From positions 1-43,076 of the forward strand of contig JAUVXW010000037.1 in NCBI GenBank assembly GCA_030603385.1: 43,076 bases of DNA. The letters run 5' to 3'. Position numbers and translations under genes: made by a program. This document shows positions 18,056 to 25,093 of this stretch, piece by piece (the first letter of the stretch is position 1; each line of letters begins with the position of its first letter). The notes under the pieces were generated by a model. That model saw only the letters and a list, made by a program, of their open reading frames with translations. It did not search any database and was not told the origin of the DNA. This DNA is from Promethearchaeota archaeon. GTDB taxonomy: Archaea > Asgardarchaeota > Lokiarchaeia > Sigyniarchaeales > SOKP01.

Positions 18056-18403
18056 TTATTTTGGCATGTAAAATTTACATAAATTGCATTGATTTGCCCT
18101 TAATCTTCTTTCAGGACCAAGTATTATGAATTTTTCCGTCATATCTCCACCACATTTTGGACAGCTTTTAGAAAAATTCTCTTTAATCGAGTCTAAAACT
18201 CTTTGGATTCCTTTTTCTAACTTTAATAATTCTAAAGCGTTTTCGATTATTTTATTTGCAGAGAGCATACCAATACCTTTAATCCATGCTAATTGTTCTG
18301 GTTTTGATTTTGCAATCTCTTCTATAGTCTTTACACCAGCATTTACTAGCCTTTCAGCTGCTGTTGGACCAATGCCTCGAACTCGAACTAATTCTTCAAT
18401 CAA
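18056..18403 (-). CDS. Tandem helix-hairpin-helix protein with a C-terminal Zn ribbon
   Basis: VRGIGPTAAERL, IKGIGMLSANKI, and CPKC...CNLC. Confidence 0.85.
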   Translation of the reverse strand: MIEELVRVRGIGPTAAERLVNAGVKTIEEIAKSKPEQLAWIKGIGMLSANKIIENALELLKLEKGIQRVLDSIKENFSKSCPKCGGDMTEKFIILGPERRLRANQCNLCKFYMPK

Positions 18404-18515: not shown

Positions 18516-19244
18516 TTATTTCTCTAATTGGCGACCTACACCGTTATACATCAAATATCCCCCAGAAATCGCTAAAATCAAACCTATTGCGCCCATTACT
18601 AACCTAAATGTTGAGTCATTCAAAAAGTTCGATACAAAAATTCCATACATAAAGATTATTAAAGCAGTCGCTCCAAATATAAAAAATTTCCACTTCTTTC
18701 TTAATTGTTCATCTTCAAATTTTTTAAATATCTGGAACGAAAAGTAGAAGAAAAGACCAGTTGGGATAGATTCAATAATTAAAAGGTAAAGGAAGAAAGG
18801 AGGCATCCAATGGGGACTCCAACTTTCGGTATCAATACTTACACCCACGTCTTTAACATAGACGAATAAAATCATGCAAAACATGGCGATACCAAAGATT
18901 ATGAGAATTACTAATTGTTTTTTGAGAGTAACGACTTTTTCTGATTTTAATAGTATTAAGTCAAAAACTACGAGAAATATAATTGAATAAAAAATCCCAA
19001 AATTCGTTATATAATTCATAAACAAAATAACAGGTTCAAATTCCAACGGATCAAGTGGAGCATATATGAAATTCATAAATAATCCAAAGGCGGCAGATAA
19101 ATAGAATCCTGAAAAGATTATGTTCAATCGTTTTCTGTCTCTTTTAAGGATTTTATATGCTAAAAATATGAAAAAAAAGCAAATAAATCCTTGAGCTACA
19201 TACACAGTTATTGCTCTTGATATTGACATTTCATAAAGAGTCAT
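18516..19244 (-). CDS. Stand-alone 7TM membrane protein (HisKA_7TM-like sensor fold), paralog 1
   Basis: Seven hydrophobic helices, basic loops after TM1/3/5, and a W.P.W loop between TM4 and TM5. Confidence 0.8.
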   Translation of the reverse strand: MTLYEMSISRAITVYVAQGFICFFFIFLAYKILKRDRKRLNIIFSGFYLSAAFGLFMNFIYAPLDPLEFEPVILFMNYITNFGIFYSIIFLVVFDLILLKSEKVVTLKKQLVILIIFGIAMFCMILFVYVKDVGVSIDTESWSPHWMPPFFLYLLIIESIPTGLFFYFSFQIFKKFEDEQLRKKWKFFIFGATALIIFMYGIFVSNFLNDSTFRLVMGAIGLILAISGGYLMYNGVGRQLEK

Positions 19245-19391
19245 GATAAAACCACATTAAACCTTAATTTAATTTTAAAATATATTTAGTTAATGTAACA
19301 ATTTATCATTCTATATTTATTATTGTTGTTTTTTTCCTAACAGTAAAAATACTACTTTATTCTTTTCATTTTAAAAAAAAAATAAGTAACT

Positions 19392-20084
19392 TTATTCAAG
19401 TTGACGTCCTACACCATGATATATCAAATATAATGAAATGAGAGTCGGTAAGGATATAAGTGACCAAATGAATCTAAATGTATCATTATTTAACGTATTA
19501 GATAATGATGTTCCATAGTAAAGAAAGAAATATGCAGATACACCAATTAAAAAATATTTCCATTTCTTTTTTAATTGTACATTTCCAAGCTTTTTATATA
19601 TTTTTATGGAATAGTAACTTATAGGAAAAATAGCCATGCCACTACAAACTATGATTGAACAAATTAAGAAAATCCAACTCCAATCGGGTTTCCAATTTGT
19701 ACTTTGATTTATTATTATTCCACTCGGTATAAATAATAAACCTAATAAAATGAGCCCAAATAGGAGTAAAAATAAAAATTGGATTCTTTTATTAATTTTA
19801 CTAGACGGTTTTAGAAGAATTAATATAAAAATAAGCAAAAAAGCCAATGAAAAACAAAGAAAATAATATGTTGCAAAATGCAAGATGTAAACAATAGTTT
19901 CTTCAAAAATATTTGCATAAATGATATTTATAATTGCACCAATCGTATTAGAAAGATAAAAACCACTTAAGTAAAGATTAGCTCTTTTTTTACCTCTTTT
20001 TAATACTATATATGCCATGTACAGAAAAAATAGTGCAAAACCTCCTTGAATTATATAAATTTGTAGAAATCTTGCAATATCCAT
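19392..20084 (-). CDS. Stand-alone 7TM membrane protein, paralog 2 (tandem duplicate of 18516..19244)
   Basis: Shares QG, KR.N...SGFYLS, W.P.W, QL.KKWK.F..G, LN..TFR and Y.GVGRQLE with paralog 1. Confidence 0.8.
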   Translation of the reverse strand: MDIARFLQIYIIQGGFALFFLYMAYIVLKRGKKRANLYLSGFYLSNTIGAIINIIYANIFEETIVYILHFATYYFLCFSLAFLLIFILILLKPSSKINKRIQFLFLLLFGLILLGLLFIPSGIIINQSTNWKPDWSWIFLICSIIVCSGMAIFPISYYSIKIYKKLGNVQLKKKWKYFLIGVSAYFFLYYGTSLSNTLNNDTFRFIWSLISLPTLISLYLIYHGVGRQLE

Positions 20085-20370
20085 AATTTTTCTATCCCCT
20101 TTCTAATAAAGAAATAAAATTATTTTGTCTAAGGAATAATATTTAATTTGTCTTTACATAATTTAAAATGTTATGATTTAAGCTATTTTTAGTATTATTA
20201 GAACGTATTATTGGAGATATTATCTTGTGTAAATTTGAAAAAAGTAAAAAGAAGAGTAAGCCTAAATTATAGTATTTTGAGAACTAATTTACAGTTAAAG
20301 GTGAATCCATTAATTAAATATACTGTAATCTTAAAAAGAATAAAAAAAGTTAAAGAAACCAATTAATACA

Positions 20371-20562
20371 TTATTTTTCTCGCCACTCAACCCCGCATCT
20401 GCCACACCGGTACTTCTTTCCGTAAACTCTTGGGTAATCATTAATAATATTTGATTTATCTGTAGATTCATGAATCATATAATGGTTTTCTTCACTACAG
20501 CTTGGACATTTCCGGCGTCCATCAGTCTTCTCAATGGTTAACATACCATTTGGTTCTCCCAT
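20371..20562 (-). CDS. Small Zn-ribbon protein (TFIIS/Rpb9 C-ribbon-like spacing)
   Basis: CPSC...CGRC-GVEWRE, 63 aa. Confidence 0.7.
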   Translation of the reverse strand: MGEPNGMLTIEKTDGRRKCPSCSEENHYMIHESTDKSNIINDYPRVYGKKYRCGRCGVEWREK

Positions 20563-20704
20563 CTTATTTTCATCAACTCCAAAATATCGATTTTAAATAA
20601 AAATCTCATATTTTACAAAATATATCTTAAAATGTATTATATTGTTTTTATAACTTATCTCTTTTTTATCATGACTAAACAAAATAAAATGCTAGAAAAT
20701 AAGA

Positions 20705-21316
20705 TCAAAAATATTTTATTTTTTTATTACACTCCCGTACGAGTGTTTCTCCGTATATTCTTGCTTTTTCAAATAGTTCTTGACTAGAATATCGAAATCT
20801 GAAAATAAAATCGTTAAATATTTTCCTGTAAATTTCAACAACATCTCCCTTTTTATTGTAGATTTCATAACAGTATATTAAATTCAGATATTTTGTCATG
20901 TCTTCCAAACTATATCTACTTACCCTCATATTTTTTGAAGCTTTCTTTTTAAATATTTGAGAAATATCTATTCCTACGAGAATAGAAACACCTTGAAAAT
21001 AATAAGTATCGTTAAATTCTTCAATAATGTTTTTATAATACTGATAAATCGATTTCGTATCAGATTGGTCTATGGTGAGTATAATTGCATCTAGTTTCTC
21101 TATTTTATTAAAATTATTAATTATTTCTTCAAGATTTACAGCTAAAAATATCTTTACTCTAATTGGAATTTGTTTAAAAATAATGAAAAATTCTGAAAAT
21201 TCATCTGAAATCTTGGTATCTATTGCAAAATCTCTCAAGTTATCAAAAAATATATCTTTGTTATAATCCTTATTTCCAACAATTCCAATTCGCAAATTAT
21301 AGCTAATTTTTTTCAA
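20705..21316 (-). CDS. Degenerate Ras/Rab-like small GTPase-fold protein (pseudo-GTPase)
   Basis: Colinear with the Rab fold: LRIGIVGNKDYNKD (G1), VKIFLAVNLEE (G3 lost), DAIILTIDQSD..SI, ILVGIDIS (G4 lost) and CYEIYNKKGDVVEIY (G5 region). Confidence 0.7.
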   Translation of the reverse strand: MKKISYNLRIGIVGNKDYNKDIFFDNLRDFAIDTKISDEFSEFFIIFKQIPIRVKIFLAVNLEEIINNFNKIEKLDAIILTIDQSDTKSIYQYYKNIIEEFNDTYYFQGVSILVGIDISQIFKKKASKNMRVSRYSLEDMTKYLNLIYCYEIYNKKGDVVEIYRKIFNDFIFRFRYSSQELFEKARIYGETLVRECNKKIKYF

Positions 21317-21529
21317 CTGAATTCTTTCCGAAAAGAATTATTATAGTTCGTAATTTATAATTATTAATAAATCATTTTAAAGCAGTATTTTGATCTGTTA
21401 TTATCATCAGCATAAATCTACCTAATGTTAGTAATTTATTTATAATTAGTGTTTATGGTTTTAATTGGCATTATAGTAGCTGTTCTTATTCTAAATTATA
21501 AATAAAAAAAAGAGGTTTAGATAATTGGA

Positions 21530-22279
21530 TTATTCCAATGAAAGAATTTTTCTCATCCATTTAGGTAAAATAAAGCCGATGTAATAAGTTGTACTAGAAA
21601 TCAACATAAATGTCCTGAATATTATTAATGTTACTGGCGTTAAAGGGATAAATCCATCTCCAAATGCACCAATCGCAAATAAGTTGAATGAAATTATTAA
21701 GAACCTTCCCTTCCATTTAATTGCTGGATTATCTTTCACTTTAAGTGAGGCAATAGAGAAATCGTTCCCTGTAATAGTACTGATAAGCAGAGAAATTGCT
21801 AGAAACACAAAAATAAATCCTTTATAATCAATATCGACTGGATTTCTTTTAATACCGATAATGCCATCAGTAGGTGCGCCTGGAGCAAAAAAAACGAAAT
21901 AGAACAGATAGATATAAAATGCTATTGATAATAATATTATAACCAATGTTACAGGTTCTTTCTTTTTTGGGTGTAAAGTCGGCATATAAATTTGAAGCCA
22001 TGAATACAGGGCTATAGGCACTCCTATTGTTCCTAACAGAACGTAGACTTGATAGGCTATTTCTTGACGTGTGAACAGCCAGTATATATACCCAAAACCA
22101 CTAGGATACCATGGAGACATTGTAAAAATAATTGCTAAGAAGAAGTAAAATAACATTTTTTCTTTTGTCTTAATGTATTTAATGAGTACAATTACACCAT
22201 AAAACCAAGCAATAATAACGGCAATAAATCCAAAGATTCCAGATAATTGTGTTAAATCATCTAATGCTATAAAAATCAT
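21530..22279 (-). CDS. Stand-alone 7TM membrane protein, divergent subfamily
   Basis: Seven hydrophobic helices with KYIKTKEK, HPKKKE and IKWKGRFL cytoplasmic loops, and an SPWYP motif. Confidence 0.75.
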   Translation of the reverse strand: MIFIALDDLTQLSGIFGFIAVIIAWFYGVIVLIKYIKTKEKMLFYFFLAIIFTMSPWYPSGFGYIYWLFTRQEIAYQVYVLLGTIGVPIALYSWLQIYMPTLHPKKKEPVTLVIILLSIAFYIYLFYFVFFAPGAPTDGIIGIKRNPVDIDYKGFIFVFLAISLLISTITGNDFSIASLKVKDNPAIKWKGRFLIISFNLFAIGAFGDGFIPLTPVTLIIFRTFMLISSTTYYIGFILPKWMRKILSLE

Positions 22280-22957: not shown

Positions 22958-23671
22958 TTACTTGAGTTTGTGGGTACAACTTACGCAGAATTTCCATGAA
23001 GATTCTACTTTACTACCACAATTGGGGCAATGGTTAACTGAGTCACTAGATATTAGCGAAGAATCAAGCATTTCTGCAAATTTTGTGGAAAAATTATGAA
23101 TTCGATCCCAATCACGAAAATCATTATATCCCTTCATATCAAATTCAATTCCAGTACGCTTCGACAGCACTTTTATCTTACGCCTTAAATCTTGTTTTGT
23201 TTCATATTTCATTTTCGAGGAACGTGAGAGATTTATAACTGGACCAAAAACTGCACAAATAGATGGCTTAAATCCATACCTTTCAATTAAGACTTGTTCA
23301 AAAAAAGCATCTGCTGGCTCAGGGCTAATAATAACGTGCAGATCAAAAGGATTACTCCTAAATACTCCTAGAAACTTATCCTTTTGGATAATCTCTTGAA
23401 TATTAATATTGAAAAAATTTCTTAGCTCTCTTTTTAAAGTGTGTTTACCATCTCCTTGAACGCCAAATGAGATAGTATTTCCCGAGCAAGAACCGGCTAA
23501 AATCCCATCATACTGTTCCATATATGGCCATTTATTCCTTCTTGTTTTTCTGAGATCCATAAGATCCACGGCTAATCCTTTTTCTTCTAAAGTTTTAGAG
23601 ATCTCTTGTGCGATCTCTGCTACATGCCCATATGTTGAAGAAAAAACAATTAAAACTCTTTTATTTGCCAT
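22958..23671 (-). CDS. Flavodoxin-domain (HemG/Flavodoxin_5-like) protein with a C-terminal Zn ribbon
   Basis: VLIVFSSTYGHVAEIA, YDGILAGS, DFRDWDRI and CPNCG...CVSC. Confidence 0.82.
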   Translation of the reverse strand: MANKRVLIVFSSTYGHVAEIAQEISKTLEEKGLAVDLMDLRKTRRNKWPYMEQYDGILAGSCSGNTISFGVQGDGKHTLKRELRNFFNINIQEIIQKDKFLGVFRSNPFDLHVIISPEPADAFFEQVLIERYGFKPSICAVFGPVINLSRSSKMKYETKQDLRRKIKVLSKRTGIEFDMKGYNDFRDWDRIHNFSTKFAEMLDSSLISSDSVNHCPNCGSKVESSWKFCVSCTHKLK

Positions 23672-23800
23672 ATTCCTTATTTTTCACCCTTTAATACATT
23701 AATCAATTCAAATTTTTATTTAATCTTTTTGAAAAAACATTATATATTTATGAGTTGAATAATATAATATAATTTAAGTTATCCACAATCACTATATTAA

Positions 23801-24619
23801 ATGAGTGAAATGTCATTAGTAACTTTTAGAGGTAGAGCTTATAGGGTAAAGAAGAATATCTTAACATTAAGAAACAAAAGAATAAATAGCATTGATGAGA
23901 TTGAAGGCCTTCTAAATATTCCATATTTAGCAAGTCTAGATCTCTCGAATAATAACATACGAGAAATAAAAGCGCTTGAAAACCTAACCAGTTTAGTAAG
24001 TTTGAATCTCTCCGGAAATGGTATTACCGAGATAAAAGGACTTGAAAACCTTACAAATTTGAATAGTTTGGATCTCTCTAGAAATGGTATTACTGAGATA
24101 AAAGGACTTGATACTCTTAAAAAGTTGCGTTTCTTAAATCTGAACATCAACAATATTGCTGAGATTAAGGGATTAGATAATTTACCTGAACTAATGGTCT
24201 TAAATCTTGAAAAAAATACTATTAGGGAATTAAAGGGTTTGGAAAATGTTCGCAAATTGAACGCTTTATATCTAGCAAATAATTTCATTACTGAAGTGAA
24301 AGGGATTCAACATCTACGAAATCTTAAGAGATTTGATATAGGTAAAGTTTCTAAAGTTCCACGAGATCAGATGAAACAAGTTCAAAGAGCTGGAATACAA
24401 ACAAAAGATCAGCGTTATTTTGAAAAAAGGACACAGTGGCAAATAATCGGGTATTTTATTGCGGTTATTATAACAGATTTAATCCTCTCAGCTTCACTAG
24501 TAGCTGGATTTCAAATGAGCGCGGATGCTCTTTTACCTGCGTTTGGCTTGTTGTTTTTCCCCTGTATGATCCTAGTTCCTTTTCTATATTGTTTTGGTAA
24601 AGCTTATTCAGGATATTAA
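23801..24619 (+). CDS. SDS22-like leucine-rich repeat protein with two C-terminal TM helices
   Basis: About 7 repeats of 22 aa (L..L.L..N.I.EIKGLEN) followed by two hydrophobic helices. Confidence 0.9.
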   Translation: MSEMSLVTFRGRAYRVKKNILTLRNKRINSIDEIEGLLNIPYLASLDLSNNNIREIKALENLTSLVSLNLSGNGITEIKGLENLTNLNSLDLSRNGITEIKGLDTLKKLRFLNLNINNIAEIKGLDNLPELMVLNLEKNTIRELKGLENVRKLNALYLANNFITEVKGIQHLRNLKRFDIGKVSKVPRDQMKQVQRAGIQTKDQRYFEKRTQWQIIGYFIAVIITDLILSASLVAGFQMSADALLPAFGLLFFPCMILVPFLYCFGKAYSGY

Positions 24620-24634
24620 ACATGAAACAGATTC

Positions 24635-25093
24635 TTACTCTTGATCATATTTCTTGATTTTAAATAAATTCCTCCATATTTTTTTTATATCTAAAATCTT
24701 TGCCAAATAGAAGCTTGTTAAGAGAATTATACTCATAAAGAATAATATTGTATATACAAGAAAAAAAACTCCTCCATATTGTGTATTAAACAGGGCAATC
24801 AACCCCCCAGAACTAAAAAAACAAATATCCATTAGAGAATTGATAACACTATCTCTCCTTTTTGCAAATTTAATCCCTTTATAATAAAAAATAGTATTTT
24901 CTAATGATTCCCAGATTATTGCTATAAAAGAAGTGTACATTAAACTAAAGATACCAAGAGGAATGCTGTACAGAATAAATAAAATTCCATTTAATACTAT
25001 AAAAATTAAATACCCAATAATTAGATGGGTGAAACTAAAAAAATCAATAGCTGTAATCCCAATATCGTCTTTATTTGTGGCTATCACTTTCAT
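24635..25093 (-). CDS. Small polytopic membrane protein (DUF2585-like, putative metal-binding)
   Basis: D.FSFTH...G, WE.LEN, DS..NSL.DI, 4 TM helices. Confidence 0.65.
   Translation of the reverse strand: MKVIATNKDDIGITAIDFFSFTHLIIGYLIFIVLNGILFILYSIPLGIFSLMYTSFIAIIWESLENTIFYYKGIKFAKRRDSVINSLMDICFFSSGGLIALFNTQYGGVFFLVYTILFFMSIILLTSFYLAKILDIKKIWRNLFKIKKYDQE

Follow-up and report, generated by a model that had tools for sequence, protein, structure and literature searches.

Stand-alone seven-helix proteins, a pseudo-GTPase and a zinc domain at one Lokiarchaeia locus: probably three separate things rather than one signalling module

How coupling between G-protein-coupled receptors (GPCRs) and G proteins originated is an open question, and the natural place to look for a precursor is among the Asgard archaea. 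Such a precursor seemed to be on offer in contig JAUVXW010000037.1 of a Promethearchaeota archaeon (Asgardarchaeota; Lokiarchaeia; assembly GCA_030603385.1), of which positions 1 to 43,076 were analysed (hereafter, the window). Five consecutive minus-strand genes, encoding in transcription order a seven-transmembrane (7TM) protein (7TM-A), a Ras-like pseudo-GTPase, a zinc protein and two further 7TM proteins (7TM-B and 7TM-C), had been interpreted in a first-pass annotation as a candidate 7TM/G-protein signalling module; its coordinates, strand, protein lengths (249, 203, 63, 230 and 242 amino acids (aa)) and intergenic gaps (213, 142, 286 and 147 nucleotides (nt), from 7TM-A to 7TM-C) are all reproduced here. 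Comparison with related genomes indicates that the locus is probably a slowly rearranging chromosome stretch in one Lokiarchaeia family that carries three separate things, namely 7TM-A, a small unit formed by the pseudo-GTPase and the zinc protein, and 7TM-C with its optional duplicate 7TM-B, rather than one five-gene signalling module. What is new is a family of Asgard pseudo-GTPases that has apparently not been described before, along with orphan sensors of GPCR fold, parts that are real and mildly novel. The features concerned are as follows.

7TM-A, 21530..22279, minus strand: 249 aa, a stand-alone 7TM protein of an expanded Lokiarchaeia family, probably on its own transcript.
EamA/DMT transporter gene remnant, 21425..21505, plus strand: some 14 codons of the N-terminal end fused to some 13 of the C-terminal end and carrying a premature stop.
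Pseudo-GTPase, 20705..21316, minus strand: 203 aa, TTG start, a predicted Ras-superfamily G-domain fold with an extra C-terminal helix.
Zinc protein, 20371..20562, minus strand: 63 aa, a stand-alone Loki-type (CxxC)2 zinc domain.
7TM-B, 19392..20084, minus strand: 230 aa, a tandem paralog of 7TM-C.
7TM-C, 18516..19244, minus strand: 242 aa, a putative orphan sensor, GPCR-fold/HisKA_7TM-like.
HhH and zinc-ribbon protein, 18056..18403, minus strand: 115 aa, downstream of 7TM-C and beyond the interval of the first-pass annotation.

The adjacency of 7TM-A to the pseudo-GTPase is a local event. In all 41 close relatives with upstream DNA (relatives being Promethearchaeota or Lokiarchaeota records throughout), an opposite-strand EamA gene lies between the two, directly upstream of and divergent from the pseudo-GTPase gene, and 7TM-A directly adjoins the pseudo-GTPase in none of them (0/41). 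Relative to the related locus L031, 834 bp are missing here, with a junction near 21466/21467, and a decayed remnant of both EamA ends is kept at 21425-21505. Deletion of EamA is thereby shown to have made 7TM-A the neighbour of the pseudo-GTPase; an assembly artefact is unlikely as its cause because the remnant has decayed further. The image of 7TM proteins "bracketing" a GTPase and a zinc protein, with five consecutive co-oriented genes as the normal state, thus reflects the 834-bp deletion in this genome. Membership of 7TM-A in the unit does not hold either, since it is absent from the locus in 36/36 loci of eight other genera, and its orthologs in other genera have unrelated neighbours. 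7TM-A would belong to an expanded 7TM family whose genes are scattered, with a transcript of its own, and was brought beside the pseudo-GTPase through the EamA deletion alone. In genus g20 (L114-L136), genes for a corrinoid protein, an S-methyltransferase and an MttB-family methyltransferase stand upstream of EamA, at the position that 7TM-A holds in the source genus.

The individual genes are maintained. Against three close relatives, 7TM-A, the pseudo-GTPase, the zinc protein and 7TM-B show ratios of nonsynonymous to synonymous substitution rates (dN/dS) of 0.07-0.30 and, on this measure, are therefore functional genes under purifying selection; for 7TM-C, the alignment of 78 intact orthologs contains 23 invariant columns. 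Runs of 8, 7, 10 and 15 T residues follow 7TM-A, the zinc gene, 7TM-B and 7TM-C, respectively, and none follows the pseudo-GTPase gene; in this genome, runs of at least 7 occur in only 3% of operon-like pairs. These runs therefore suggest separate transcripts, with the pseudo-GTPase and zinc genes possibly transcribed together. A scan for bacterial promoters and terminators, which is unsuited to archaea, stayed at chance level. Outside the genus, opposite-strand genes (mostly Fe-S) lie between the pseudo-GTPase and the 7TM gene in 14/31 loci. An EamA insertion in 41/41 relatives, these opposite-strand genes, gaps of 142-286 nt and T runs of 7-15 do not describe a conserved operon.

Gene order was examined across relatives as well. 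The succession of pseudo-GTPase, zinc protein, 7TM-(B)C and HhH-zinc protein recurs across one Lokiarchaeia family, so that the conserved neighbourhood expected in the first-pass annotation is present at face value in that family; however, background adjacency is high, for even the most distant genus tested shares 32% of strictly neighbouring pairs with this genome, or 40-43% if pairs within 3-6 genes are counted, and opposite-strand genes interrupt the series as described above. Recurrence extends to the EamA, C2-like, acyltransferase and exchanger genes on the flanks. The HhH protein is the most constant downstream neighbour of 7TM-C (31/34 and 24/27 loci); in genus g19 (L110:5605-6351), a duplicated small domain stands in place of its HhH part, with the zinc ribbon kept. 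The locus shows how a deletion in one genome, together with a high background of synteny, can take on the look of a signalling operon.

The 7TM proteins are also retained where the pseudo-GTPase is missing. Genomes G198 (98% complete) and G300 read EamA<, Zn>, Fe-S<, 7TM>, HhH> (arrowheads giving orientation), with the pseudo-GTPase cleanly gone, and G257 has nine B/C-type 7TMs and no pseudo-GTPase match. The B/C family occurs in 123/128 genomes of the family and 2/2 of one further family, as well as in 13/14 sister-family genomes, where the pseudo-GTPase was not found. In a mirror-tree comparison over 37 matched loci, the pseudo-GTPase correlated with 7TM-C at r 0.53 (partial 0.11), versus 0.90 with EamA and 0.84 with the HhH protein. 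A complex prediction for 7TM-C and the pseudo-GTPase, both supplied as alignments, scored 0.00 in two runs and is evidence neither way. With 7TM-A outside the unit, linkage not clearly above background and the 7TM kept without the pseudo-GTPase, a five-gene 7TM/G-protein signalling module is not upheld; the partner of 7TM-C would be older and more widespread than the pseudo-GTPase and probably encoded elsewhere.

Several points weigh against this separation into three. The order and orientation of pseudo-GTPase, zinc protein, 7TM and HhH protein are kept in nearly all loci with enough DNA, a 7TM lying downstream of the pseudo-GTPase in 39/39 and 31/33 of such loci. Genus g19 keeps a fused pseudo-GTPase-zinc gene, the 7TM and the HhH gene together after EamA and all other neighbours have changed, which is the best point in favour of the module idea, yet a single event set against a high background. 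No well-supported genome was found with the pseudo-GTPase and without a B/C-type 7TM (G292 being ambiguous). Paralog exchange among the 7TMs may blur the 7TM-C tree and so weaken the mirror-tree test, the transcription units are deduced from sequence features, and the adaptor and ligand-sensing steps proposed below are likewise inferred. It could be proposed on such grounds that the pseudo-GTPase and zinc domain constitute a facultative, nucleotide-independent transducer for 7TM-C and 7TM-B, forming a lineage-specific receptor-adaptor pair comparable to GPCR and G-alpha without the GTP switch. Co-orientation over nine genera, persistence in g19 and the invariant cytoplasmic face of 7TM-C with no fused output would suit such a pair; the fact that G198, G300, G257 and the sister family keep the 7TM and show no pseudo-GTPase, frequent opposite-strand insertions, the lack of excess tree similarity and a background synteny that suffices for much of the linkage make it unlikely. 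Nothing specific points to direct coupling between 7TM-C and the pseudo-GTPase, which is unlikely too, and the more far-reaching proposal, in which 7TM-C couples directly to the pseudo-GTPase/zinc unit as a GPCR-fold Asgard receptor signalling via a Ras-fold protein that has no nucleotide switch, possibly to actin regulators with the same zinc domain, is quite improbable.

The AlphaFold model of the pseudo-GTPase, built from 76 homologs (model confidence, pLDDT, 90.7), shows a G-domain fold of six strands and five helices to which an extra conserved C-terminal helix is appended. The model matches Rab and Rho GTPases (Foldseek E 2e-8), aligning with Rab3C over 156 residues (Z 13.7, root-mean-square deviation (rmsd) 3.0 Å) and with p190RhoGAP pG1 at Z 10.2. 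The G1, G3, G4 and G5 motifs are eroded throughout the family: a canonical G1 GxxxxGK[ST] and a G3 DxxG are present in 0/75 members each, and a G4 NKxD ([NT]KxD) in 2/75. This erosion shows that the predicted nucleotide site has been lost, and the early description of a "dead" Ras-like GTPase is thus supported by both fold and motifs. The gene is maintained by selection (dN/dS about 0.15). Variability peaks in the loops that line the former nucleotide site (entropy 2.1-2.8 bits), and conservation is highest on the opposite face and in the extra helix (1.2-1.8 bits). The conserved face comprises the N-terminal strand edge, the beta2-beta3 turn, the alpha4-beta6 loop and the end of alpha5. It is the face that G-alpha shows to GPCRs, a match that would suit the facultative transducer described above and may equally reflect packing of the extra helix. 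The pseudo-GTPase would most likely act as a fixed-shape adaptor via this opposite face and the extra helix. A G-alpha-like identity was considered and rejected, since the 203-aa model has no helical insertion between alpha1 and beta2.

The distribution of the pseudo-GTPase is narrow. It is single copy in 62/68 genomes of its Lokiarchaeia family, had no match in 232 genomes from other Asgard families, and remained absent from five sister-family genomes in a search with a broader profile; it is thus restricted to one Lokiarchaeia family. A full-library profile search recovered the family itself plus weak matches to intact Rab-like proteins (E 1e-4 to 1e-3), and the protein probably descends from a Rab-like gene. 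Pfam and NCBIfam yielded no family for it, and a PDB sequence search returned only Arl8 (E 0.5). Ras-superfamily small GTPases such as Rab and Rho share its G-domain fold but possess the canonical G1/G3/G4 motifs that it does not. Eukaryotic pseudo-GTPases (p190RhoGAP pG1, CENP-M and AAGAB) also share the fold, with no sequence link shown; unlike them and the small GTPases, the 203-aa protein has a conserved extra C-terminal helix and is confined to a single archaeal family. A literature search of incomplete coverage found no paper describing an Asgard pseudo-GTPase. One ortholog of 393 aa (L047:7998-9179) carries a tail resembling part of ribosomal protein uS3 and may be a mis-assembly.

The best-supported link at the locus is that between the pseudo-GTPase and the zinc protein, the two being fused in two lineages, genus g19 (326 aa) and P0242 (400 aa). 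These fusions are likely independent, as judged from their different linkers and from their separation in all bootstrap trees, in which the branches are not strongly supported. Outside the genus, zinc genes were counted in at least 16/33 loci, a number lowered by the filter on open reading frames (ORFs), and more are present. The 63-aa protein corresponds to the C-terminal zinc domain of the Loki two-domain gelsolin Loki2DGel, having (CxxC)2 with a tyrosine loop and a Loki-centred range. Its match to the C-terminus of the 335-aa gelsolin encoded in this genome has E 2e-33, and at least four further proteins match it too. The domain and its stand-alone copies have been described previously (Akil et al. 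2022, PMC9433394), and the available portion of that paper makes no mention of linkage or fusion to a pseudo-GTPase. In Loki, gelsolin is among several proteins with this zinc domain attached, and the domain would tether the pseudo-GTPase to a shared cellular target. Carriers of a zinc domain of the 63-aa type include the two-domain gelsolin at G000 C3:13393-14400, a coiled-coil protein ending in the domain and encoded divergently from a gelsolin-like gene at G000 C12:3015-4593, and, in G201 (L240), a 321-aa protein ending in the domain whose gene is directly followed by a stand-alone zinc gene.

7TM-C would be an orphan sensor of the HisKA_7TM/GPCR fold. Its model (pLDDT 92.4) comprises seven helices with a beta-hairpin between TM4 and TM5 and basic loops after TM1, TM3 and TM5. 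Among 48,161 PDB representatives, GPCRs or designed GPCR folds take all of its top 50 places, the best match reaching Z 17.2 at an rmsd of 3.5 Å over 213 residues; by Foldseek alone, the match is weak (best E 3e-3). The closest annotated structures are HisKA_7TM input domains of kinases and cyclases, with template-modelling (TM) scores of 0.72-0.77 over 222-228 residues. According to the model, 7TM-C has a GPCR-type bundle and so, by homology (38% identity between the paralogs), does 7TM-B. The GPCR/HisKA_7TM-like topology and the basic loops after helices 1, 3 and 5 noted at the outset are therefore borne out for 7TM-C, as is the absence of an attached output domain: the 7TM ORFs end just past TM7, that of 7TM-C a few residues beyond it with no fused kinase or cyclase. 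A search for long fused homologs of 7TM-C, itself weak evidence, found none. 7TM-B is dispensable, often absent and broken in several relatives.

Resemblance at the level of fold does not extend to the signatures of known receptors. 7TM-C has no DRY, CWxP or NPxxY motif, no cysteine in the second extracellular loop (ECL2) and hence no TM3-ECL2 disulfide (its cysteines are at 22 and 123 only), and no lysine in residues 211-236, thus no TM7 retinal-binding lysine; no microbial rhodopsin is among the top 50 fold matches, a relation with rhodopsins still being possible. Eukaryotic GPCRs, of which ADGRL3, CD97 and GABA-B match best, have the same helix arrangement at 5-14% identity, but 7TM-C is without the class A motifs and the ECL2 cysteine and shows no sign of a G-alpha partner. 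The G-domain encoded beside the 7TM genes has lost the nucleotide motifs on which exchange-factor activity of a receptor would depend. The Pfam family HisKA_7TM (PF16927) matches no protein of the window and gives weak matches in 6/85 relatives of 7TM-C (best E 3.5e-4). HisKA_7TM sensors share the seven-helix bundle, whereas the fused kinase or diguanylate cyclase is theirs only; unlike them, 7TM-C is found in Lokiarchaeia and has its own invariant cytoplasmic motifs. HisKA_7TM domains have archaeal representatives on record (PMC5847659), and similarity chains have been used to connect the 7TM domains of archaeal histidine kinases with GPCRs (PMC13581589). On the 7TM-C model, the two B/C-type proteins thus resemble HisKA_7TM sensors minus the kinase, with the GPCR fold in common and GPCR identity not shown.

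Invariant residues of 7TM-C fall into two groups, one of outer polar residues (R10, Q18, N58, Y61, T80, P144, N206 and R214) and one in the three cytoplasmic loops and the tail. This pattern would suit a pocket for a ligand and a face on which a soluble partner docks. 7TM-C would probably bind a small polar ligand in its outer pocket and pass a shape change to a soluble partner docked on the invariant cytoplasmic loops. Conversely, the 7TM proteins might not be sensors at all, their GPCR-like bundle serving transport, lipid handling or scaffolding: they lack an output domain, transporters (EamA, a Na/Ca exchanger) are among their neighbours, and similarity of fold does not by itself reveal function, other roles being known for proteins of GPCR fold (PMC13581589). 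This is improbable, given that the nearest annotated structures are the kinase and diguanylate cyclase input domains and that lineage-specific expansion to dozens of copies and cytoplasmic finger-domain fusions are typical of receptors. Two reagents open to testing come from the locus, one being small GPCR-fold proteins that stand alone and have a conserved pocket and putative docking face, the other a conserved archaeal pseudo-GTPase. A B/C-type 7TM fused to a basic, possibly winged-helix tail of 100 aa was observed in G348 (L233:1189-2181).

7TM-A differs from the B/C family, with no significant profile match between them; profile comparison thus gave no proof that 7TM-A and 7TM-B/C descend from one ancestor. 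Its predicted seven helices follow from hydropathy and Atlas features, the latter grouping it with Promethearchaeota clusters auto-named HisKA_7TM-like, and Pfam and NCBIfam yielded no family for it. The 7TM-A family is expanded: this genome has 4 copies, and the number of matches per genome rises to about 49. In G321, 7TM-A-family proteins of 353-372 aa (L244:2083-4367, L245:1998-3059, L246:130-1248 and L247:2269-3345) carry a C-terminal eight-cysteine RING-like finger, possibly a natural output domain.

The other three 7TM-A paralogs of this genome all adjoin intact small GTPase genes, against a background of 4.9%. A general 7TM/GTPase neighbourhood rule was nevertheless rejected, because 7TM-A-family genes in other genomes adjoin a GTPase in 4/71 cases (5.6%), which is background; a 7TM/longin enrichment was rejected likewise (2/71, background level). 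The labels longin-like and DENN-like denote sequence patterns and not family matches. On G000 contig C52 (12013-13942; L169:3014-4943), a 7TM-A paralog is followed by an intact Arf/Roc-like GTPase gene and then by a longin-like gene, with an overlap of 4 bp between these last two. Together, the GTPase and longin-like genes occur as a pair in 34/34 loci with upstream DNA; a 7TM precedes the pair in 26/30 genus loci and in one other genus (G189), and is absent upstream in four other genera. As a candidate for coupling between a 7TM and a GTPase, this cassette ranks above the locus in the window. At G000 C55:41915-44590 (L170) and C31:9945-12998 (L171), two more paralogs lie beside small GTPases: one has a longin/DENN-like gene before it and converges with an MglA/Arf-like gene (an arrangement also seen in G189), and the other lies upstream of two longin-like/Rab fusion genes. 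In G257 (L235:8461-14977), four zinc-bearing DENN-like genes of 280 aa alternate in a tandem array with one A-type 7TM and two of B/C type. In 12 close-relative loci, though not in the window, the HhH gene is followed by a related gene of 326 aa.

It is conceivable, therefore, that stand-alone 7TMs signal via intact small GTPases or longin/DENN-like regulators encoded elsewhere, the informative gene pairs lying at other loci. The three GTPase-adjoining paralogs, the C52-type cassette and the alternating G257 array speak for this idea, which is rendered doubtful by the lack of family-wide enrichment, by the four genera in which the cassette has no 7TM upstream and by labels drawn from sequence pattern. 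It is compatible with the preferred reading of the locus as three separate things and only names the missing partner of the 7TMs. Small-GTPase neighbourhoods are on record in the form of Asgard roadblock/Rab/DENN operons, which combine Rab-like GTPases and regulators (Liu et al., bioRxiv 10.1101/2020.10.19.343400), and so are Asgard 7TM/GPCR-like structural clusters (bioRxiv 10.64898/2026.10.28.762692). In the portions searched, neither source describes this pseudo-GTPase or a 7TM-GTPase pairing, and the literature search, of incomplete coverage as stated, found no paper on 7TM-GTPase coupling in Asgard archaea.

Elsewhere in the window, positions 22958-25093 constitute a variable insert with genes for a flavodoxin-like zinc-ribbon protein, an LRR membrane protein and a 152-aa membrane protein, found in 4-5 of 42 related loci.

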